IMG/VR virus record: IMGVR_UViG_2740892035_000001
Location: 1 to 26,810 of that record
Length of the DNA: 26,810 nucleotides
Direction: 5' to 3' (one strand)
Source of the DNA: a virus
Taxonomy: Duplodnaviria; Heunggongvirae; Uroviricota; Caudoviricetes
Below, piece after piece: positions 5,353 through 26,810 of this stretch; the stretch's first letter is position 1; each line of letters opens with the position of its first letter. The notes under the pieces were generated by a model, which was not told the origin of the DNA, searched no databases, and saw only the letters and a list, made by a program, of their open reading frames with translations. Made by a program: the position numbers and the translations under genes.

Positions 5353-5579
5353 TGGCTGATGCAATGGATCTCGTACAGCAGCGCGTTGAAGAAGAACGCC
5401 AGCGCCATATCCGTGCAGCCCGTGCCAAATCACCGGGCGTGTCACGCGTACTTTGCATTGAATGTGAAGCGCCAATTCCGCCAGCACGACGCCGCGCCAT
5501 TCCGGGAGTGCAGCTTTGCATTACCTGTCAGGAAATCGCAGAACTGAAAGGCAAACATTACAACGGAGGTGCTGTATGA
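5352..5579 (+). CDS. TraR/DksA-family C4 zinc-finger protein (P2 orf82-like), 75 aa
   Basis: CIECEAPIPPARRRAIPGVQLCITCQE has four Cys in C-x2-C...C-x2-C arrangement typical of the TraR/DksA finger; its stop overlaps the next ATG (ATGA). Confidence 0.7.
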   Translation: MADAMDLVQQRVEEERQRHIRAARAKSPGVSRVLCIECEAPIPPARRRAIPGVQLCITCQEIAELKGKHYNGGAV

Positions 5580-6433
5580 GCACCATCCTGAAATGGGCGG
5601 GAAATAAAACCGCCATTATGCCAGAACTGAAAAAATACCTTCCTGCTGGCCCGCGACTGGTTGAACCTTTCGCGGGTTCCTGTGCTGTGATGATGGAAAC
5701 GGATTATCCCAGCTATCTGGTTGCGGATATTAATCCTGATTTAATCAACCTCTATAAAAAGGTTGCCGCTGATTGTGAATCGTTTATATCTCGCGCCAGA
5801 GTTTTATTTGAGATCGCAAACAGGGAGGTGGCTTATTACAACATAAGGCAGGAGTTTAACTGCTCAACTGAAATTACTGATTTCATGAAAGCGGTATATT
5901 TCCTGTATCTCAATCGTCACGGTTACCGTGGTTTATGTCGCTATAACAAGAGCGGGCATTTCAACATTCCCTACGGTAATTATAAAAATCCGTATTTCCC
6001 TGAAAAAGAACTTCGCACATTTGCAGAAAAAGCCCAGCGAGCAACGTTTATCTGCGCCAGCTTTGATGAAACGCTGGCGATGTTGAAGGCGGGAGATGTG
6101 GTGTATTGCGATCCGCCATATGACGGTACGTTTTCCGGCTATCACACTGATGGTTTCACTGAAGATGACCAGTATCACCTGGCATCCGTTCTTGAACATC
6201 GGTCATCAGAAGGACATCCGGTCATTGTTTCTAACAGTGACACATCCCTGATCCGTTCGCTGTATCGCAATTTTACTCACCACTATATCAAGGTAAAACG
6301 CAGCATCGGTGTGGCAGCTGGCGAGGGTAAATCAGCAACAGAAATCATTGCTGTTTCCGGGCCGCGCTGCTGGATGGGATTTGATTATTCGCGTGGCGTG
6401 GATAGTTCTGCCGTGTACGGAGTACGTGCATGA
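5576..6433 (+). CDS. N6-adenine DNA methyltransferase, Dam-like (orphan, no adjacent endonuclease), 285 aa
   Basis: Motif [10 protein letters not shown] and catalytic DPPY ([12 protein letters not shown]) present; GGAGG SD before ATG 5576. Confidence 0.85.
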
Positions 6434-8844
6434 GTCATGCCGATATGAACAACTGCTGCGGCTTTAACGAGGCTGCCGCAGCATTCTCATGGAACAGCCC
6501 GAAAAAGGCCATTAACCCTTATCTGGACCCGGCGGAAGTTGCGCCGGTTTCTACGCTTTCAAACCTGATCACTCTGTACGCTGCCGATAACGAGCAGGAA
6601 CAGTTGCGCCGCGAGGCACTGAGTGATCAGGTCTGGGAGCGTTATTTCTTTAATGAATCACGTGATCCTGTCCAGCGCGAAATGGAGCAGGATAAGCTCA
6701 TTAGCCGGGCAAAGCTGGCGCATGAGCAGCAGCGTTTTAATTCAGACATGGTCATTCTGGCGGACGTCAACGCCCAGCCTTCCCATATCAGCAAGCCGCT
6801 GATGCAACGTATTGAATACTTCAGCAGCCTGGGCAGGCCAAAGGCTTATTCCCGCTATTTACGTGAGACGATTAAGCCATGTCTGGAACGACTGGAGCAT
6901 GTACGCGACAGTCAGCTATCTGCATCTTTTCGCTTTATGGCAAGCCATGAAGGGCTGGACGGCCTGCTGATCCTGCCTGAAATGAGTCAGGATCAGGTGA
7001 AACGCCTGTCCACCCTGGTAGCTGCGCATATGAGTATGTGCCTTGATGCAGCTTGTGGTGATTTGTATGCCACCGATGACGTTAAGCCAGAAGAAATCCG
7101 CAAGACGTGGGAAAAGGTGGCAGCGGAAACCCTGCGTCTGGATATCATCCCACCTGCGTTTGAGCAACTCCGTCGGAAAAGAAACCGCCGTAAACCCGTG
7201 CCCTATGAACTCATTCCGGGTTCGCTGGCGCGTATGTTGTGCGCCGACTGGTGGTATCGGAAATTATGGAAGATGCGTTGCGAATGGCGGGAAGAGCAGT
7301 TGCGCGCTGTTTGCCTGGTCAGCAAAAAAGCATCTCCTTATGTCAGCTATGAAGCCGTGATGCATAAACGTGAGCAGCGCCGTAAGTCGCTGGAGTTTTT
7401 CCGTTCTCATGAACTGGTGAACGAAGACGGCGACACGCTGGACATGGAGGATGTGGTAAACGCCAGCAGCAGCAACCCTGCGCATCGCCGCAATGAGATG
7501 ATGGCCTGTGTTAAAGGTCTGGAGCTTATCGCGGAAATGCGCGGTGACTGCGCCGTTTTCTACACTATCACCTGTCCGTCGCGTTTCCATTCCACGCTAA
7601 ATAACGGCAGACCAAACCCGACCTGGACAAACGCGACGGTAAGACAAAGCAGCGATTATCTGGTCGGCATGTTTGCTGCATTTCGTAAGGCGATGCACAA
7701 AGCCGGGTTGCGCTGGTATGGCGTGCGGGTGGCTGAGCCGCATCATGATGGCACAGTTCACTGGCACCTGTTGTGTTTCATGCGCAAAAAAGACCGCCGT
7801 GCCATCACTGCATTACTGCGTAAGTTTGCCATCCGTGAAGACCGCGAGGAGCTGGGCAATAACACTGGGCCGCGCTTTAAGTCTGAGTTGATTAACCCGC
7901 GCAAAGGAACGCCGACAAGCTACATCGCGAAATATATCAGTAAGAACATTGACGGTCGTGGTCTGGCTGGCGAGATCAGCAAGGAAACGGGTAAATCTCT
8001 GCGTGATAACGCTGAATACGTGAATGCCTGGGCGTCTCTGCATCGTGTTCAGCAATTCCGCTTCTTTGGTATTCCGGGGCGTCAGGCTTACCGTGAACTT
8101 CGCTTGCTGGCTGGTCAGGCGGCAAGGCAACAGGGTGACAAAAAAGCAGGTGCGCCGGTACTGGATAACCCGCGTCTTGATGCCATTCTGGCTGCTGCTG
8201 ATGCTGGTTGTTTTGCCACCTACATCATGAAGCAGGGCGGCGTACTGGTTCCCCGTAAATATCACCTCATCAGAACCGCTTATGAAATCAACGAAGAGCC
8301 GACCGCCTATGGCGATCACGGCATTCGTATTTATGGCATCTGGTCACCCATTGCAGAGGGCAAGATCTGCACTCATGCAGTGAAGTGGAAAATGGTTCGT
8401 AAAGCCGTTGACGTTCAGGAGGCGGCAGCCGACCAGGGCGCTTGCGCCCCTTGGACTCGTGGCAATAACTGTCCCCTTGCTGAAAATTTGAACCAACAAG
8501 GGAAAGACAAATCAGCTGATGGGGATACCAGGACGGACATTACCCGCATGGATGACAAGGAGTTGCACGATTACCTGCACAGTATGAGCAAAAAAGAGCG
8601 CCGGGAACTGGCTGCAAGGTTACGCCTGGTGAAACCGAAACGGCGTAAAGACTACAAACAGCGAATTACAGACCATCAGCGACAGCAGCTCGTCTATGAA
8701 CTGAAGTCCAGAGGATTTGATGGCAGCGAGAAAGAGGTCGATTTACTCCTTCGCGGCGGCAGTATTCCGTCAGGAGCAGGCCTGCGTATCTTCTATCGGA
8801 ACCAGCGTTTGCAGGAAGATGATAAGTGGCGAAACCTGTATTAA
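6430..8844 (+). CDS. A: Replication initiation endonuclease, P2 gpA family (rolling-circle initiator), 804 aa
   Basis: Size and position as in P2 A; contains the HWHLL-type histidine motif (TVHWHLLCF) and downstream active-site Tyr context (YIAKYISKN); start overlaps Dam stop. Confidence 0.85.
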
Positions 8845-8938
8845 TTACGCGGGTTAACAATTCGTGCTCTTAATAATACCAGGCATATCAGGCTGATGAA
8901 CGTAAAAAAACGTTTTACATCAGTAAGATTATTATATA

Positions 8939-8954
8939 CTGTAAATATAAACAG
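8939..8954 (+). promoter_or_regulatory. LexA (SOS) box CTGTAAATATAAACAG, next to a TTTACA -35-like hexamer at 8914-8919
   Basis: Exact CTGT-N8-ACAG match read from sequence, ~45 nt upstream of the tum-like ORF. Confidence 0.7.
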
Positions 8955-8997
8955 TGGTTATGAATACAGTATTGCTTGTGGTGTCATAGGAGGAAAG

Positions 8998-9186
8998 ATG
9001 CAGGACTATTTTTTGGAGTCTTTGAAGCTCCAGCGCATTGATTTTTTTCTTAAGCTTGTAGCGGCTAGTGAGTGTAGTGATGAAGAGAAGGGGCTGGCTT
9101 TGCAGTGGGTTTCTGAACTGACAGATGAACTCATGGCAAAAATCAGAACCCACGAATACAACCGCTCAATGGATGTCATCAGCTGA
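8998..9186 (+). CDS. Tum-like antirepressor N-terminal part (62 aa as read); probably the frameshifted 5' portion of a longer tum gene
   Basis: GGAGGAAAG SD before ATG 8998; downstream of LexA box; frame overlaps the start of the DinI-like ORF (see findings). Confidence 0.4.
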   Translation: MQDYFLESLKLQRIDFFLKLVAASECSDEEKGLALQWVSELTDELMAKIRTHEYNRSMDVIS

Positions 9187-9196
9187 GGTGACTTTT

Positions 9197-9430
9197 ATGC
9201 GCATTGAAATAATGATCGATAAAGAGCAGAAGATTAGCCAGTCTACCCTGGATGCCCTTGAATCCGAGCTTTACCGCAATCTGCGCCCCCTGTATCCCAA
9301 AACGGTAATTCGTATCCGCAAAGGTAGCTCTAACGGTGTGGAACTGACCGGACTGCAACTGGACGAAGAAAGAAAACAAGTGCTGAAAATTATGCAGAAG
9401 GTGTGGGAAGACGACTGCTGGCTGCATTGA
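9197..9430 (+). CDS. DinI-family protein (Tum72/DinI-like), 77 aa
   Basis: MRIEIMIDKEQ...ESELYRNLRPLYP...KVWEDDCWLH follows DinI family hallmarks (MRIE start, acidic Trp-containing C-terminus); own GAGGTGA SD. Confidence 0.65.
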   Translation: MRIEIMIDKEQKISQSTLDALESELYRNLRPLYPKTVIRIRKGSSNGVELTGLQLDEERKQVLKIMQKVWEDDCWLH

Positions 9431-9566
9431 TAGGTTTCGTTTGTAATGAGTCATGTTTTTTGAGTCCGATAGTAGACAGCTAGAGGGATAAATGATTAAT
9501 AGATAGATTAAACATAGTGATGGGCGTAAAATCGCGCGCATTTTATTGGCAACGGATCTGAACTCA

Positions 9567-10460
9567 ATGGCGGATAAGACTCAATCAGTAAGTATTGTGT
9601 ATCAAGGCAAAGCTCTCGACGATCATAAGATGGATATTCTTTCGTTTGCGAAAAGTTTGCAGGGGCTAGGTGAGGCTATCTACTCTGCAAATGAGATTGT
9701 AAACGGAGGGCGAGACATTGAAGTTAACGTTGACGCTGAATTGATAGCCGGTTCCTTTGGGTTTGATATTGAGGTTGTACAACATCTAGCTAATGCTAAA
9801 GATGTTGTACAAATTTTAGGTTTGTCAGCCATTCCTTTAGCCGTTGGCGGTGCTACAGTTTTAGAGGTTCTCAAGAAGCTTAACGGGCGTAAGATCGACA
9901 TAGTCGAGAAAGCTAACGGTAGTGACAAAGTTAAGCTGAAAGTCGATGGTGAAGAGATTGTTTGCTCTGAAGATGTCGAAAAAATCGTTAATGCCCCAGA
10001 GATTCGTAAGGCTGTTGACGCGTTTGTCAGACAGCCTCTGTTACAAGATGGTATCGACAATTTTGTGGTAAAAAAATCGCGCACCTCTAAGAAAGAAATC
10101 CTCAAAATTCATAAAGATGAGGCAGAAGAGTTTAAGTCGCCAAAAGTTCTCTTTGAAACCAAAGAAGAAGTTGACGAATTTGAAACAACCGTGACATTCG
10201 TTTCGGCGCATACTGACAAAAAAAGTGGCTGGCGTGTTGAGTTTGGCGGTGAAAAGCGCAATGTCAGAATGGAAGATAATGAGTTCATCAAGCTTGTTAC
10301 TGGACCAGACGCCCCCAAAATTTTTGGCGAATTGTTTGCTGTGAAGATGAAGAAAATTGTGAAAGATTCCGGTGGCCAGGTAGACGAAAAGTTATCGATC
10401 ATCAAAGTGGGTCGACACTTTGCCGCCAAAGATAGAAAAATAAAACCTGATGCGGATTAA
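9567..10460 (+). CDS. Accessory cargo protein X, ~297 aa, soluble, no recognisable motif (track start 9546 is a TTG)
   Basis: Long open frame in an AT-rich insert; first gene of a tightly coupled three-gene operon. Confidence 0.6.
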   Translation: MADKTQSVSIVYQGKALDDHKMDILSFAKSLQGLGEAIYSANEIVNGGRDIEVNVDAELIAGSFGFDIEVVQHLANAKDVVQILGLSAIPLAVGGATVLEVLKKLNGRKIDIVEKANGSDKVKLKVDGEEIVCSEDVEKIVNAPEIRKAVDAFVRQPLLQDGIDNFVVKKSRTSKKEILKIHKDEAEEFKSPKVLFETKEEVDEFETTVTFVSAHTDKKSGWRVEFGGEKRNVRMEDNEFIKLVTGPDAPKIFGELFAVKMKKIVKDSGGQVDEKLSIIKVGRHFAAKDRKIKPDAD

Positions 10461-10462
10461 AA

Positions 10463-10726
10463 ATGTCTATAGATATTAGTGTGTTAGGATGGTTGGGGCT
10501 GCTTGTTGCAGCTCCAGCTATATTTATAGGTGCTAGAGTGGCTATACGTAGCCTGCTCGATCGAGTTATTGTCGAAACAAAAGTTTCTATCACTTATACT
10601 GATGCAAACAAAAATGTCTATAAAACAAATATTTATATAAACAATGATGATGAGTTAATAAAGCTCATCGATGATATAGCAGAGAAAAATAAGCGTGAGA
10701 GGAAGGAGTCAGCCTCTCATGCCTGA
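10463..10726 (+). CDS. Accessory small membrane protein Y, 87 aa, one N-terminal TM helix plus charged C-terminal tail
   Basis: ISVLGWLGLLVAAPAIFIGARVAI hydrophobic segment; starts 2 nt after X stop. Confidence 0.55.
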   Translation: MSIDISVLGWLGLLVAAPAIFIGARVAIRSLLDRVIVETKVSITYTDANKNVYKTNIYINNDDELIKLIDDIAEKNKRERKESASHA

Positions 10727-11135
10727 ACAAAAGAAAACAAGCGGTAAAGCAGTCGGTGTTACAGGTGGCGGCGGTGTAGGCCTTTTCCTAATAAAGCTGG
10801 CTAGCTTCATTACAGATCCAACATGGAAAGACCTTTACATTGCTTCAATACCGATGGTGTCAATTCTTTTAAGCGAAGTTTTTACTTTTGCATGGACGAT
10901 TTATGCTGTTGATCCGCAAGAAATCAAACTGAAAAGGCGGTTGAAGGCTCTGAAGAAGCAAGCCGAAGCAGTTTTAAATGCACCATCGTCCCCTGTTTCT
11001 CCAGAAATGCGAGAGAAAGCGCAGGCTCGTTACGACGTGATCTGTGGAATTGAAATGGGAATTTACCCCCTCTCAATTGTAAATACGCTAGATGGAAAAG
11101 TATCCCCCACAGCGCAAACGCCGGACGTTAAATAG
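10719..11135 (+). CDS. Accessory membrane protein Z, 138 aa, two TM helices then soluble C-terminus
   Basis: ATG 10719 with AGGAAGGAG SD; overlaps Y by 8 nt; hydrophobic segments GVGLFLIKLASFI and IASIPMVSILLSEVFTFAWTIYAV. Confidence 0.55.
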   Translation: MPEQKKTSGKAVGVTGGGGVGLFLIKLASFITDPTWKDLYIASIPMVSILLSEVFTFAWTIYAVDPQEIKLKRRLKALKKQAEAVLNAPSSPVSPEMREKAQARYDVICGIEMGIYPLSIVNTLDGKVSPTAQTPDVK

Positions 11136-11671: not shown

Positions 11672-11786
11672 TTTTATCGTCCTTTCTGTCTCTTCGTAGT
11701 TGCCTTGCTTTTGAATCATCTTCAATAACGATCCTTCTTGCGGGTGGAGTAGGCCGAGGAGGTGGTGGCGGTAACGGTTTGGTCAT
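11649..11786 (-). CDS. Polyproline micro-ORF 3 (45 aa): MTKPLPPPPPRPTPPARRIVIEDDSKARQLRRDRKDDKNDRTQKS
   Basis: ATG overlaps the TAA stop of the upstream membrane protein gene (TAATG); translated by hand from the reverse complement. Confidence 0.45.
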   Translation of the reverse strand: MTKPLPPPPPRPTPPARRIVIEDDSKARQLRRDRKDDKNDRTQKS

Positions 11787-12436
11787 TAAGTTCTCCTGAC
11801 ATTTTCAATAGGTATTATCAAATAGTTAGGGGCGTTATTTTTCCGCGGTGATGCTGCATCTAAATCAGCTAAAAGAAATATGACTACTGCTGCGATAATT
11901 GGAATCCATGACCAGACAAGATACTTTGTTGACTCAAATAGTTTACTGGAACGTTCCTCATTGATATTACTGTTCCAGCTAGCACACTCTCTGATTTCTT
12001 GATGAATAAACTCCCAAAGTTTATTATCAGGGTTATAACTTTCATCGTATGTAAGTCCATTGTCATCGCAATATTTTTTATATTTCACTTCGTAACTAAT
12101 CAGATCTATGTGATAATCATGCAATGCTTTAGGTGCAGGGCAATACTTAAATTCATTTCCCCATATGACTTGTTTCAACAGAATTGATGATACAAGAACT
12201 AAGCCAAATGAAATTGCGGTACATAAAAATACTAGGCAAGCTAGCCTTGGGTGGGATTCATAAGATGTGTTTTTGGCGAGATAAGTGAGTATAGTTGCGG
12301 TAATGACAACTAATCCGAATTCGGCTTGAGCGCGAGTATGTATCTTGTCTTTATTCTCAATTTCTGAGAAATAAAGTTTTTCGTAAAATTCTAATGCTTT
12401 ATCCTTTTTCATTTTTAGATTCAGTGTGATGTCCAT
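11786..12436 (-). CDS. Accessory integral membrane protein, 216 aa, ~3 TM helices, no recognisable motif
   Basis: Hydrophobic segments FGLVVITATILTYLA, LACLVFLCTAISFGLVLVSSILL and YLVWSWIPIIAAVVIFLLA; AT-rich; between portal gene and cos-like motif. Confidence 0.6.
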   Translation of the reverse strand: MDITLNLKMKKDKALEFYEKLYFSEIENKDKIHTRAQAEFGLVVITATILTYLAKNTSYESHPRLACLVFLCTAISFGLVLVSSILLKQVIWGNEFKYCPAPKALHDYHIDLISYEVKYKKYCDDNGLTYDESYNPDNKLWEFIHQEIRECASWNSNINEERSSKLFESTKYLVWSWIPIIAAVVIFLLADLDAASPRKNNAPNYLIIPIENVRRT

Positions 12437-22250: not shown

Positions 22251-23145
22251 CCTTTCGCAGTTGCCTGCGCCGCAGATTGTGGATGTGCCGGACTTTGAGA
22301 CGCTGCTTGCCGAACGCAAGGCAGAATTTGTGGCGCTTCATCCGAAAGATGAGCAGGAAGCAGTGATCCGCACGCTGGAACTGGAATCTGAACCCGTCAC
22401 CAAATTGCTGCAGGAGAACGCTTACCGTGAGTTGCTTCTGCGCCAGCGCATTAACGAAGCCGCGCAGGCTGTGATGGTGGCTTACGCGATGGGCAGCGAT
22501 CTTGACCAGCTCGCTGCCAACTACAACGTGAAACGCCTGACGGTGACGCCTGCTGATAATGACGCTGTGCCGCCCGTTGCAGCTGTGATGGAAAGCGATG
22601 AAGCGTTACGCCTGCGTGTGCCTGCAGCCTTTGAAGGGCTTTCAGTTGCGGGGCCAACTGCAGCTTATGAATTTCATGCCCAAAGCGCCGACGGTCGGGT
22701 GGCGGATGCCAGTGCAACCAGCCCGGCACCTGCAGAGGTGGTGCTGACTGTCCTTAGCCGCGAAGGCGATGGAACTGCAGAAAAAAACCTGCTGGACGTG
22801 GTGGAAAAAGCTCTGAACAGTGAGAACGTCCGCCCGGTGGCTGACCGTATTACGGTTCGCAGCGCAGAAATCATCCCGTATCGCGTGGAAGCCACCATTT
22901 TTCTCTATCCGGGACCGGAAGCAGAGCCGGTAATGGCAGCGGCAAAAGCCAGCCTGCAGAAGTACATCGCCAGTCAGACACGTCTTGGTCGGGATATTCG
23001 CCGTAGCGCCATCTTTGCCGCCCTGCATGTTGAGGGTGTGCAGCGTGTGGAGCTGGCTTCTCCTCTGGCGGATGTGGTCCTGAACAAAACACAGGCGGCA
23101 TCATGTACGCAGTGGAGCGTAACCAACGGAGGAACGGATGAATAG
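22237..23145 (+). CDS. J: Baseplate protein J (P2 gpJ family), 302 aa
   Basis: ATG 22237 in frame inside track ORF 22198-23145; position and size as P2 J. Confidence 0.85.
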   Translation: MAVIDLSQLPAPQIVDVPDFETLLAERKAEFVALHPKDEQEAVIRTLELESEPVTKLLQENAYRELLLRQRINEAAQAVMVAYAMGSDLDQLAANYNVKRLTVTPADNDAVPPVAAVMESDEALRLRVPAAFEGLSVAGPTAAYEFHAQSADGRVADASATSPAPAEVVLTVLSREGDGTAEKNLLDVVEKALNSENVRPVADRITVRSAEIIPYRVEATIFLYPGPEAEPVMAAAKASLQKYIASQTRLGRDIRRSAIFAALHVEGVQRVELASPLADVVLNKTQAASCTQWSVTNGGTDE

Positions 23146-23743
23146 TCTGCTGCCGCCGGGTTCAACACCACTGGAGCGCCGACTGGCGCAAACCTGCAGC
23201 GGGATTTCTGATCTGCAGGTGCCGCTTCGTGACTTGTGGAATCCGGCAACCTGTCCGGTCAGTTTCCTGCCTTATCTCGCCTGGGCGTTCTCTGTGGATC
23301 GCTGGGACGAGGGCTGGACAGAAAGCGTCAAGCGCCAGGTGGTGAAGGATGCTTTTTATATTCATCAGCATAAAGGGACCACCAGTGCCGTGCGGCGGGT
23401 GGTGGAGCCGTTCGGCTTTCTGATCCGCATTATTGAGTGGTGGCAGACCGGAGAGGCACCGGGCACGTTTCGCCTGGATATCGGCGTGCAGGACCAGGGC
23501 ATCACTGAAGATACCTATCTGGAACTTGAGCGACTGATAAGCGATGCCAAACCATGTAGCCGCCACATGATCGGCATGTCCATCAATCTGCAGACCAGCG
23601 GCCCGCATTGGGTGGGAGCCGCCAGCTATCTTGGCGAAGAAATCACGATCTATCCGTATATCAACGAAACGATTATTTCCGGTGGCACCGCGCATGAAGG
23701 CGGGGCGGTCCATGTTATTGACACAATGAGAGTGAATCCATGA
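23138..23743 (+). CDS. I: Baseplate/tail formation protein I (P2 gpI family), 201 aa
   Basis: Position between J and H as in P2; overlaps both neighbours. Confidence 0.8.
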   Translation: MNSLLPPGSTPLERRLAQTCSGISDLQVPLRDLWNPATCPVSFLPYLAWAFSVDRWDEGWTESVKRQVVKDAFYIHQHKGTTSAVRRVVEPFGFLIRIIEWWQTGEAPGTFRLDIGVQDQGITEDTYLELERLISDAKPCSRHMIGMSINLQTSGPHWVGAASYLGEEITIYPYINETIISGGTAHEGGAVHVIDTMRVNP

Positions 23744-25242
23744 GCACAAAATTTTATACCCTGCTGACGGATATTGGCGCGGCGAAACTTGCCAGCGCCG
23801 CCGCGCTCGGTGTGCCGCTAAAAATTACCCATATGGCGGTGGGCGATGGCGGCGGAGTATTGCCAACGCCGGACGCAAAGCAGACGGCACTGGTAAATGA
23901 GAAACGCCGGGCTGCGCTGAATATGCTTTATATCGACCCGCAGAACAGCAGCCAGATTATTGCTGAACAGGTGATCCCTGAAAACGAGGGCGGTTGGTGG
24001 ATACGTGAAGTGGGCCTGTTTGATGAGTCCGGGGCATTGATTGCCGTGGGAAACTGCCCGGAAAGCTATAAGCCGCAACTGGCTGAAGGCAGCGGGCGTA
24101 CCCAGACCGTGCGCATGGTGCTGATCACCAGCAGCACGGACAATATCACCCTGAAAATCGACCCTGCTGTAGTGCTGGCAACCCGTAAATACGTGGATGA
24201 TAAAGTCCTGGAATTAAAGCTGTATGTGGATGACCAGATGAGAAACCACATTGCCGCACAAGATCCTCATACCCAGTATGCGCAGAAACATAATCCGACA
24301 TTTACCGGAGAACCAAAAGCGCCGACGCCTGCAGCAGGAAATAACACCACTCGGATTGCGACCACAGAGTTTGTTCAGGCCGCTATTACTGCTCTGATTA
24401 ACGGTGCGCCAGCCACGCTGGACACACTGAAAGAAATTGCCGCAGCCATTAACAATGACCCGAAATTCAGTACCACTATTAATAATGCACTGGCACTGAA
24501 AGCGCCGCTGTCGAGTCCGGCACTCACCGGAACGCCAACAGCACCTACTGCGGCACAGTCGGTCAACAATACACAGATTGCCACCACGGCATTTGTGAAA
24601 TCGGCGATTGCGGCAATGGTGGGTTCTGCACCTGCGGCACTGGATACACTGAACGAACTGGCGGCGGCACTGGGGAATGATCCGAACTTTGCCACGACAA
24701 TGCTTAATGCGCTGGCAGGTAAACAACCGCTGGACAATACGCTGACTCATTTGAGTGGAAAGGATGTAGCAGGTCTTCTCGCATACCTTGGTTTGGGAGA
24801 AGCGGCAAAACGAAATGTGGGCAACGGGGAAAACCAAATCCCTGATATGTCTTTCTGGACGGTTACTGGTGGCAATGGAAATTTTGTGATTCGTCAACCT
24901 GACGGGCTAATCACTCAGATGGTTACTGTAAGTATAAGCGGTCCAGTGGCGATGAATGGAATGACTGATAATGCTTATGCCATTACAGGTTCTAATAAGT
25001 CTTATATTGCCACAGCCACATTGCCCTTTGTATTTCCTAATAAGGTGCTGGGCGTTATCCCTCTGGTATCAACAACAGCTTATGGTGGTGTATCCAGTAA
25101 TATTACAGGTTCATACGCGACGGCGGTTTGTTCTTTTGCCGCTGTCAGGGGGAATAATACGATTGTGTTCAAAGTCGACAAACCACTGAATGCAGCCTTT
25201 CCTTCAGATACCAGCGTCTCAGCGTTAATCATTGGACGGTAA
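23740..25242 (+). CDS. H: Tail fibre protein H in its current orientation: constant N-terminal part (to ~24788) fused to variable C-terminal receptor-binding part Hv (24789-25242), 500 aa
   Basis: Position as P2 H; repetitive Ala/Thr/Asn-rich fibre sequence; hix-like crossover site inside the ORF at 24776-24801. Confidence 0.88.
   Translation: MSTKFYTLLTDIGAAKLASAAALGVPLKITHMAVGDGGGVLPTPDAKQTALVNEKRRAALNMLYIDPQNSSQIIAEQVIPENEGGWWIREVGLFDESGALIAVGNCPESYKPQLAEGSGRTQTVRMVLITSSTDNITLKIDPAVVLATRKYVDDKVLELKLYVDDQMRNHIAAQDPHTQYAQKHNPTFTGEPKAPTPAAGNNTTRIATTEFVQAAITALINGAPATLDTLKEIAAAINNDPKFSTTINNALALKAPLSSPALTGTPTAPTAAQSVNNTQIATTAFVKSAIAAMVGSAPAALDTLNELAAALGNDPNFATTMLNALAGKQPLDNTLTHLSGKDVAGLLAYLGLGEAAKRNVGNGENQIPDMSFWTVTGGNGNFVIRQPDGLITQMVTVSISGPVAMNGMTDNAYAITGSNKSYIATATLPFVFPNKVLGVIPLVSTTAYGGVSSNITGSYATAVCSFAAVRGNNTIVFKVDKPLNAAFPSDTSVSALIIGR
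24776..24801. promoter_or_regulatory. Left 26-bp hix/gix/cix-like crossover site TTCTCGCATACC-TT-GGTTTGGGAGAA inside H
   Basis: Right half-site is the reverse complement of the left half of the site at 26760-26785; central dinucleotide TT versus AA, i.e. inverted orientation. Confidence 0.7.
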
Positions 25243-25244
25243 GA

Positions 25245-25688
25245 ATGAACTCAGTATTCTTTTCACCCGGAAGTAAAAGTTTTTATCTGCAAGAATTGTT
25301 TCCAGAATATGAGGATGCGGGAACGCTTCCTGATGATGTTATTGAAATTACCAGAGAAACATATGAGCAATTTCTTGGGCTGCATCCAGAAGGGAAAGAA
25401 ATTGGCGCTGACAGTTCAGGACGACCAGTATGGATTAATTCCCCACCGCCTTCAAAAGAGGATGAGGTGCTGGCGGCTGAAATGAAAAAAATATCTTTGG
25501 TTTCAGAAGTCAATACCTACATCAATACCCATCAGTGGCCTGGCAAAGCTGCTATTGGTCGTCTGAAAGGTGACGAGCTGGAACAATATAATTTATGGCT
25601 GGATTATCTGGACGCACTGGAACTGGTCGATACTTCCGGTGCGCCAGATATTGAATGGCCTACGCCTCCGGCAGTTCAGGCCAGATGA
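25245..25688 (+). CDS. G: Tail fibre assembly protein G (Tfa), 147 aa
   Basis: Conserved Tfa C-terminus (NLWLDYLDALELVDTSGAPDIEWP); immediately after H. Confidence 0.85.
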   Translation: MNSVFFSPGSKSFYLQELFPEYEDAGTLPDDVIEITRETYEQFLGLHPEGKEIGADSSGRPVWINSPPPSKEDEVLAAEMKKISLVSEVNTYINTHQWPGKAAIGRLKGDELEQYNLWLDYLDALELVDTSGAPDIEWPTPPAVQAR

Positions 25689-26262
25689 CGTCCGGCGCTG
25701 TGCTGGTATCTGTTGCCGTCACCGCGTCAATATAATCCAGCACAGCGTTAAGTCGGGTGTTTTCTGGCTGCGTCAGCTTCCGCCCGGCCTGTAATTTCAG
25801 TTGAATCAGATTGATGGAAGCCATTGCAGCATCAATCAGCGACTGGCGCTGTGCTTCTGCCGCTTCTACTGCGGCGCTATGCTGTGCCTCAGTATCTGTC
25901 ACCCATTTCTCACCATCCCATTCATCGTATGGCGTTAACGGGGCGATAGTGGTTGTATTTTCAGGATAATCACCAGGAGCTGTGATTTCTTTCGATTCTC
26001 CTGTTTCGGTGCTATAGATGATTTCACCGCGATGGTCTGGCACATATTCCCATGAGTTAAAATCTGCAGAACGGCAGATTGCATAACCAGCTTTATGTGT
26101 AACTGGTGCATCTAAACAAGAACATGCCGGGATACCGACGCCAACCGCAAGATATTCAGTTGATGTGGAAATATATTCCCGCGTTTCACCATCATAATTA
26201 TAAATGGTAATGTCTCCCGCTTTTATGGCAATGAGTTCGTTATTTAATACGGCTTTATTCAT
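25660..26262 (-). CDS. Alternative tail fibre assembly protein (tfa of the inverted orientation), 200 aa
   Basis: Conserved Tfa C-terminus (LNAVLDYIDAVTATDTSTAPDVIWP); convergent with G, 29-nt 3' overlap. Confidence 0.85.
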   Translation of the reverse strand: MNKAVLNNELIAIKAGDITIYNYDGETREYISTSTEYLAVGVGIPACSCLDAPVTHKAGYAICRSADFNSWEYVPDHRGEIIYSTETGESKEITAPGDYPENTTTIAPLTPYDEWDGEKWVTDTEAQHSAAVEAAEAQRQSLIDAAMASINLIQLKLQAGRKLTQPENTRLNAVLDYIDAVTATDTSTAPDVIWPELPEA

Positions 26263-26772
26263 CAGGCAGCCCTCACGATATAATTAAAGGCAATGTTACG
26301 AGGACGGTTTTCGTTTGCAGTTGGAACGATTCTTGAAGCATCAAGGCCAATCACTTTTGGGTAAACAGCGCCATCTGTTCTTTCTGTCACCATACTTCTG
26401 ATTAAGGAGAAATAACTATTGTTCGTTGAGGGATTCAAAGGCACCACTGCCCCCTTAAACGAGCCTGCTGATTCCCATATTGAATAATTTTCGGTGTTTA
26501 CAGTCTTGAACTCACCATAGATATTACGTATGGCATCGCCCTGAGCTGATAATATTGTTCTCCCCGCATCCGCACTACGCCCATCATCCCAGCCACGAAT
26601 AAATTCACCGCGTAAATCAGGCAATTTATTTGTCGGGTAAGCCTTTGCCAGTTCCGGGTATTCTTCAGCAGAAAAAGCTGCTCCGTTGCATTTCAGCCAG
26701 CCTGTTGGCGGAGTGGCTGAGGGCCACGGAACAGGCACCCCAACAGGTAATGCAGAGCCTTCTCCCAAACCA
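26262..26772 (-). CDS. Alternative tail fibre C-terminal variable domain (tail-collar type), ~170 codons, with no start of its own; expressed only after inversion fuses it to the H constant part
   Basis: GVPVPWPSATPPTGWLKCNGAAFSAEEYPELAKAYP resembles the Mu S/P1 S/e14 StfE tail-collar domain; the open frame runs through the hix-like site to the window edge. Confidence 0.75.
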
Positions 26773-26785
26773 ACGTTTAAGAAAA
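26760..26785. promoter_or_regulatory. Right 26-bp hix/gix/cix-like crossover site TTCTCCCAAACC-AA-CGTTTAAGAAAA
   Basis: Closely resembles hixL (TTCTTGAAAACCAAGGTTTTTGATAA) as recalled; inverted relative to the site at 24776-24801. Confidence 0.75.
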
Positions 26786-26810
26786 TGCAGAGGTAACAGC
26801 TAACTGGCAT

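Follow-up and report, generated by a model that had tools for sequence, protein, structure and literature searches.

Invertase-driven switching of tail fibres has been textbook knowledge since the Mu G, P1 C, and e14 P segments. We describe here a segment of this type near the right end of the virus record IMGVR_UViG_2740892035_000001 (IMG/VR; Caudoviricetes), of which positions 1 to 26,810 were analysed as a whole (hereafter "the window"). Two inverted sites enclose the 3' part of the tail-fibre gene H together with an alternative fibre tip and two chaperone genes. The evidence supports an inversion switch of the Din family (Gin/Cin/Hin/Pin), of the e14 P-segment/PinE type, located in an apparently intact E. 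coli prophage of the P2/186 family, within the tail-fibre operon. The system is not a new one: its kind has been described and experimentally demonstrated, and dozens of complete E. coli genomes carry the locus. As a discovery it has little weight, being real but ordinary.

The e14 P segment of E. coli K-12 and its invertase PinE were reported by Plasterk & van de Putte 1985, as cited in PMC4272514. Its layout is identical to that of the locus under study: stfP and tfaP are followed by tfaE (-), stfE (-), and pinE, the latter reading away from the segment. The left e14 site, CTCTCGAAAACCTTGGTTTGGGAGAA, which can be written CTCTCGAAAACC-TT-GGTTTGGGAGAA, differs from the left site of the window at 3 of its 26 positions, and the right one, TTCTCCCAAACC-AA-CGTTTATGAAAA, differs from its counterpart by 1 nt. 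The tfaE/stfE half displays 88.6-91.8% DNA identity to that of the window (88.6% in the tfaE region), and the distance from the site centre to the invertase ATG, 67-68 nt, is the same in e14 and in the relatives of the window. In contrast, e14 is a defective lambdoid element whose StfP constant part is short and whose stfE has become a pseudogene, whereas the window encodes a full P2-type H. Furthermore, the cassette formed by the variable tip of H (Hv) and its 147-aa chaperone is not that of e14 StfP/TfaP, just 51 nt around the site being alignable.

The P1 C and Mu G segments belong to the same mechanism class, with 26-bp sites of the same consensus and two cassettes, each made of a tip and its chaperone. 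The inner half of the P1 cix site, TTCTCTTAAACC, is identical to that of the window at 10 of 12 positions, and the P1 site falls in the same frame of the fibre gene S, where it encodes GLRE instead of the GLGE of the window. The P1 enhancer lies inside the 5' end of the invertase gene, which is also the position of its putative homologue in the relatives of the window. However, P1 cin reads towards the segment and its enhancer is found about 470-540 bp from the nearest site, whereas in the relatives about 86 bp separate the crossover from the start of the enhancer homologue, a spacing shared with e14 and near the ~100 bp of Hin (PMC3798978). The P1 and Mu segments are also larger (3-4.2 kb), with longer variable parts, and their virion types are unlike. 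The likeness to the Mu, P1, and e14 segments proposed in the initial annotation is nevertheless well founded in the site consensus, the layout, and the similarity of the relatives' invertase to Gin, Cin, and PinE.

Switches of this kind have also been documented in P2-like prophages. By paired-end sequencing and PCR, Goldberg et al. 2014 (PMC4272514) established phase variation at two loci in P2-like prophages of enteropathogenic E. coli (EPEC) E2348/69, both orientations coexisting in single-colony cultures. The two-state locus (NC_011601.1, 2977580-2979467), reported to be forward in 93% of cases (PMC4272514 Table S1), has the same gene order as the window, with a P2-family tail module and then the sheath and tube genes. 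Its right site (L007 5955-5980) is identical at 26 of 26 positions to the invertase-proximal site of the window, and its tfaE/collar half is 92-94% identical. It differs in being a truncated remnant, at 2.98 Mb, devoid of the H shaft, and in that its second cassette harbors a different gp53-like tip. The other EPEC locus, at 1.89 Mb, is a three-site shufflon, whereas the window has two sites.

Escherichia phage pro483, classified by the International Committee on Taxonomy of Viruses (ICTV) as Peduovirus pro483, displays the order of the window as well: tail protein, chaperone, chaperone (-), tail collar fibre protein (-), a gene annotated as "DNA invertase", and sheath. It covers, however, only 55% of the H-to-site region of the window, at 88% identity, and its expressed tip is unlike. 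Phage 500465-1 possesses an invertase 99.5% identical to that of the window's relatives, and Fels-2 of Salmonella carries the Fin invertase (PMC12529663). More broadly, a 2024 preprint (bioRxiv 10.1101/2024.10.15.618418) reports that a DNA invertase is often encoded at the P2 hotspot, with adjacent genes inverted, and a 2023 survey (PMC9881135) places tail-fibre genes among the recurrent targets of programmed inversion. The P2-type fibre, initially seen as an unusual setting for such a switch, is therefore not one, the phenomenon being already demonstrated in P2-like prophages (PMC4272514) and annotated in pro483.

Crossover sites and alternative fibre tips

The best inverted repeat returned by a repeat finder between positions 23000 and 26810, I1, consists of two 27-nt arms (24776-24802 and 26759-26785) that are 81% complementary and 1956 nt apart. 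These arms contain two 26-bp sites (Table 1), with the common half-site and reverse-complementary centres that had been read from the DNA at the outset. The inner, segment-proximal half-sites are TTCTCCCAAACC in both cases, on opposite strands, and the outer half-sites are unlike each other. The central dinucleotides, TT on the left and AA on the right, are reverse complements, the right AA being TT on the other strand; the stretch identical in the two sites amounts to about 15 nt. In serine invertases, both cores must match in inverted orientation for the staggered ends to religate after a 180-degree rotation.

When the whole 26.8-kb window was scanned with the Gin/Hin/Cin/Pin (Din-family) consensus TTNTCNNAAACCNNGGTTTNNGANAA, allowing up to 3 mismatches, the left and right sites were the only 2 matches, with 1 mismatch each. 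In shuffled windows 0.01 matches were expected, and two or more were obtained in none of 100 shuffles. The inverted repeat at 24776-26785 is thus confirmed as lying far beyond chance, and its assignment to the Gin/Hin type stands. The same consensus scan gave no third crossover site in the window, of the sort that makes a shufflon of the 1.89-Mb EPEC locus. Inversion by Din-family recombinases has been reported to require such 26-bp recombination sites (PMC3798978).

Table 1. Features of the tail-fibre locus, in window coordinates.
Feature	Position	Strand	Remarks
Gene H, tail fibre, 500 aa	23740-25242	+	P2-type N-terminal domain
Hc, constant part of H	23740-24787	+	Codons 1-349 and first base of codon 350; Pfam PF12571
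Left crossover site, pixL-like	24776-24801	+	TTCTCGCATACC-TT-GGTTTGGGAGAA; central TT 24788-24789; inside H codons 346-354
Invertible segment, 1,986 bp	24788-26773	.	Both central dinucleotides included; in-frame H' by in-silico inversion; L005 match on minus strand
Hv, variable C-terminus of H in present orientation, residues 355-500	24802-25242	+	Weak Gp53-like_C-type domain
Tail-fibre assembly chaperone of Hv (gene G position), 147 aa	25245-25688	+	Caudo_TAP E=1.5e-27; PHROG 188 E=1e-55
Chaperone cognate to Hv', tfaE-like, 200 aa	25660-26262	-	Caudo_TAP E=1.3e-31; PGAP name tfaE in relatives
Hv', alternative tail-collar C-terminus of H	26262-26771	-	Pfam Collar PF07484 E=8e-16; PHROG 523 E=4e-75
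Right crossover site, pixR-like, invertase-proximal	26760-26785	+	TTCTCCCAAACC-AA-CGTTTAAGAAAA; central AA 26772-26773
Start of spacer towards invertase gene	26786-26810	+	In relatives, 30 nt from window position 26810 to invertase ATG

Gene H follows gpI (Tail_P2_I), as in P2, and its Phage_tail_fib domain (PF12571) spans residues 1-150 (Pfam, E=5.5e-65). In the contig from which the window derives (L004) and in a close relative (L003), the order GpV, GPW_gp25, Baseplate_J, Tail_P2_I, H, and chaperone, with sheath and tube further on, is the V W J I H G order of P2. The left site lies inside gene H, so that the constant shaft is joined to either Hv or the alternative tip, Hv'. Inverting 24788-26773 in silico generates an uninterrupted 519-aa protein, H', which shares residues 1-354 with H. 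The crossover TT provides the last two bases of H codon 350 (Leu, CTT), and the GLGE encoded by the site forms residues 351-354 of both proteins. The in-frame fusion through a shared GLGE junction, predicted in the initial annotation, is therefore borne out, with the crossover placed in codon 350 rather than 349.

Each tip is accompanied by its own Caudo_TAP chaperone gene, and the two cassettes are convergent. The chaperone genes overlap by 29 nt (25660-25688). They also contain an internal inverted repeat, I4 (25598-25615 and 25724-25741, 18 nt, 89% complementary), which probably stems from a conserved C-terminal chaperone motif encoded on opposite strands by both genes.

The two tips belong to different families, Collar for Hv' and, weakly, Gp53-like_C for Hv, and a BLASTP comparison between them (E=0.68) indicates that they are unrelated in sequence. 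PHROG 523, which Hv' matches, is the family of tail collar fibre proteins, and solved structures resembling Hv' include a short tail fibre (PDB 9cuy, E=1.2e-25) and T4 gp37 (2xgf, E=3e-17). The proposal of a collar-type alternative C-terminus with its own tfa gene is thus sustained by both domain assignments. The open reading frame (ORF) of Hv' as called mechanically extends to 26262-26810, with its ATG at 26810, beyond the segment. As for Hv, its match to Gp53-like_C (PF21882, E=3.2e-4) is below the family cut-off, and it falls in PHROG 12714 (E=9e-48), a family of unknown function. A sequence search against solved structures gave no match to Hv at E<=1, and structure prediction from its single sequence reached a mean predicted local distance difference test (pLDDT) score of 37, which is unusable. 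The homologues listed for Hv are all at least 96% identical, too close for an informative alignment. None of H, the two chaperones, and Hv' is represented by a model in NCBIfam. Of the earlier statements on the tips, Hv is indeed a different domain, but it is only modestly richer in Gly, Ser, and Thr than Hv' (28.8% vs 22.4%); the comparison with known domains, suggested as a check, gave structural relatives for Hv' and none for Hv.

Orientation of the segment in related genomes

The flipped orientation exists in nature. A 601-nt probe over the in-silico inverted left junction aligned in one piece, at 100.0% identity, to E. coli 22AR0118 (L005), and the prophage of this strain matches the inverted window without a break at 99.2% identity over 8,323 nt. 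Against the window as given, the alignment runs plus/minus/plus: both flanks are on the plus strand, the segment is 99.85% identical on the minus strand, and the breakpoints fall within 24788-24802 and 26759-26776, inside the sites. The 519-aa fusion is annotated in 22AR0118 as a single coding sequence (CDS; L005 5253-6812). With the whole H-to-site stretch as query, complete E. coli genomes with the same cassette pair were found 24 times in the orientation of the window and 36 times flipped, in a comparison made between genomes and not within the source strain. The alternation anticipated from the DNA alone is thus observed, down to breakpoints within the sites.

Isolates 1604D011 and 1504D004 (L009 and L010), both taken from pigs at one site, have the same chromosome length, and the flanks of the locus are 100% identical over 9,063 and 8,052 nt. 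Between the same two sites, the segment (L009/L010 9037-10995) is found in opposite orientations.

Genome NZ_OU342919.1 harbors two copies of the locus in opposite orientations, at 7907-10962 (in L001) and 4891693-4894748. A terminase fragment abuts the baseplate J gene in L001, a sign that the two prophage copies may have rearranged with each other.

These observations bear on how such loci are handled. Annotation pipelines label the far cassette as a free-standing "phage tail protein" or "hypothetical protein", and assemblies give an arbitrary orientation of the segment or may break at the locus. Any host-range prediction from this H gene must weigh two alternative tips.

Invertase gene, proposed mechanism, and other explanations

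Two public contigs encode a protein that matches H exactly. The end of one of them, LRWP01000025.1 of assembly GCA_001561635.1 (L004), agrees with the window at 100% identity and stops 28 nt past the window end (L004 9072-9099). In a 96.9%-identical prophage from GCA_028020955.1 (L003), the spacer is identical to these 28 nt, and the ATG 2 nt further on opens a 188-aa gene beginning MLIGYVRVSTNDQNTDLQ; the expected invertase begins ATGCTTATTGGCTATGTACGCGTGTCAAC. The same 188-aa gene is present in all close relatives examined (L001, L002, L003, L005, L009, and L010), 30 nt past the ATG of the Hv' ORF; it points away from the segment, and the sheath and tube genes come next. The invertase had been expected just outside the window; it is there in these six relatives, and in the source contig the DNA ends 2 nt before its expected ATG. 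An exact search with 77 nt of the right end of the window gave no match in a collection of species-representative genomes. The contig probably ends there because the assembly broke at an invertase gene or module present in several copies.

The invertase of the relatives displays the Pfam domains Resolvase (E=2e-53) and HTH_7 (E=1e-15) and matches Mu Gin (PDB 3UJ3) with E=1e-92. It is 83.5% identical to PinE of e14, 77.7% to the invertase of the EPEC locus, and 76.6% to Cin of P1. The catalytic S9 and R42 are kept, together with the basic residues K46, K47, and R50 of helix B. Also kept are the Gln, Arg, and Leu of helix 1 of the DNA-binding domain that correspond to Hin 151, 154, and 155 when aligned with 1HCR, a numbering for which we take chain 1HCR to start at Hin residue 139. 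According to McLean et al. (PMC3798978), K47, K/R48, and K/R51 of Hin, as well as Q151, R154, and L155, are conserved only in Fis/enhancer-dependent invertases. A Fis-binding enhancer is probable in the 5' end of the relatives' gene, judging from its sequence: nucleotides 19-90 are identical to the annotated P1 enhancer at 56 of 72 positions, a proportion not clearly above the gene-wide 74%, and their conservation may reflect coding constraint.

In the proposed mechanism, a Pin-like serine invertase encoded just past the right site would bind both 26-bp sites as dimers, and the sites would be synapsed with a Fis-bound enhancer in the first ~90 nt of the invertase gene, inversion being presumably Fis-dependent. 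Both sites would be cut with a 2-nt stagger at the central TT/AA, half of the tetramer would rotate by 180 degrees, and religation would leave 1,986 bp inverted. In the present state, the shaft (residues 1-350) would be joined via GLGE to Hv, followed by the 147-aa chaperone, and in the flipped state it would be joined via GLGE to the collar-type Hv', followed by the 200-aa TfaE-like chaperone. The cassette facing away from H, being cut off from the upstream late operon, would be silent. A population of lysogens would then release virions with two fibre tips, a form of host-range bet-hedging, if the switch operates in this strain as we presume. The two tips, being unrelated in sequence and of different families, would probably recognise different receptors and so confer two host ranges.

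This mechanism is supported by the sites, the reading frame, the domains, the occurrence of both orientations in nature, and an invertase with conserved residues in near-identical prophages. We hold it very probable that the locus is a Din-type switch which works, or did so until very recently, and which swaps the last ~150-165 residues of H along with the cognate chaperone, yielding two virion types. Some results weigh against it. The invertase gene is not on the source contig, so that an intact copy in this genome is a presumption. A simple scan for sigma-70 promoters and terminators around the site and the invertase gave no convincing invertase promoter in the spacer, with counts at chance level. 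The pair 1604D011/1504D004 was ruled out as a clean flip in situ, as the two segments differ by 16 substitutions clustered in one half: all of them lie in the Hv/chaperone half (L009 9135-10020) and 0 in the collar half. These substitutions could result from gene conversion by a second copy or from a polishing artefact.

The missing gene leaves room for a different account, in which sites and cassettes remain from a once-active switch whose cognate invertase is missing or defective here, the fibre being locked as Hv unless another prophage supplies an invertase in trans. The contig indeed ends 2 nt before the start of the gene, which is unseen, many E. coli prophage copies are remnants, such as the EPEC locus truncated beside an integrase fragment, and stfE of e14 is annotated as a pseudogene. 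We nevertheless judge a locked fibre to be quite unlikely. The 28-nt spacer is the one after which an intact invertase comes in L003, every close relative inspected possesses an intact 188-aa gene, and neither site departs from the consensus at more than 1 position; the remaining prophage looks intact from integrase to fibre, and contig breaks at multi-copy invertase genes are common in assembly. Even the truncated EPEC remnant flips (PMC4272514).

It has also to be asked whom an active switch would serve. Its products could benefit the host, instead of or besides the phage, if fibre-derived proteins blocked the adsorption of other phages, as has been reported of the e14 P segment inverted by PinQ. 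The homology to that segment (89-92% identity in the tfaE/stfE half, near-identical sites) points this way, as do the inhibition of T2 adsorption by P-segment inversion (PMC12529663) and the fact that the Hv' ORF, which starts at an ATG of its own (26810), is annotated in many genomes as a separate CDS. Yet the segment stands in the complete late operon of an apparently intact prophage, the full-length H shaft is in frame both ways, a requirement of a functional virion fibre, and nothing here points to expression in the lysogen, so that a host-serving role appears very improbable. As for inversion of a chance repeat, or of a mere substrate for occasional homologous recombination, the short identical stretch and the repeat's complementarity of just 81% speak for such an origin. 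But a stretch of 15 nt falls far below what RecA needs to recombine efficiently, and both orientations are nevertheless common; moreover, the window has two consensus matches where 0.01 would be expected, its sites are nearly the same as the crossover sites of e14 and P1 and share their reading frame in the fibre gene, and an invertase gene adjoins in all relatives. Chance or RecA-mediated inversion is effectively excluded.

The Hv tip in other fibres and the rest of the prophage

The Hv tip (window 24802-25239; proteins P0059, P0002, and P0046) is mostly observed in other contexts. In 382 contigs it is fused via LGLGE to a 247-aa protein with a different N-terminus (MHRIDTKTAQ...). It is also found fused via LGLGE to a PF03406-type shaft, and as a silent 163-aa "MPVS...NVGLGE" form. 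The recurrence of Hv with the same junction in several fibre contexts suggests that the crossover site is where the cassette passes from one type of fibre to another. A more far-reaching idea is that Hv is an uncharacterised receptor-binding module, portable via LGLGE to at least 3 unrelated shafts, that Din-family sites also act as splice points for the exchange of tips between phage lineages, and that the locus might guard the lysogen in the manner of e14/PinQ; taken as a whole, we consider this doubtful, with a small but appreciable chance of being right.

The window extends from the stop codon of the integrase gene to the ATG of the Hv' ORF and represents a P2-family prophage of the 186/Fels-2 style, with integrase, 186-type CI, Dam methylase, gpA, head, lysis, and baseplate genes. 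The D12-class N6-adenine (Dam-type) methyltransferase gene (5516-6433, +) is located directly upstream of replication gene A, an arrangement of the Fels-2 type and not of classical P2. Between the integrase and the 186-type CI repressor lies a cargo gene encoding 558 aa (1136-2812, -) with DUF4041 and T5orf172/MUG113 domains, which matches the PADLOC anti-phage model PD-Lambda-1 (E=2.4e-120). A 304-aa gene in the gpA-to-portal hotspot (9546-10460, +) matches the candidate defence model PDC-S42 of PADLOC (E=7.8e-44); its neighbours at 10695-11135 (+) and 11786-12436 (-) gave no Pfam or PADLOC match. In the prophage of 1604D011 and 1504D004, a TIR-domain gene has been inserted, separating the virion morphogenesis gene (S) from baseplate gene V (L009 4700-5500), a position at which the window lacks this insert.

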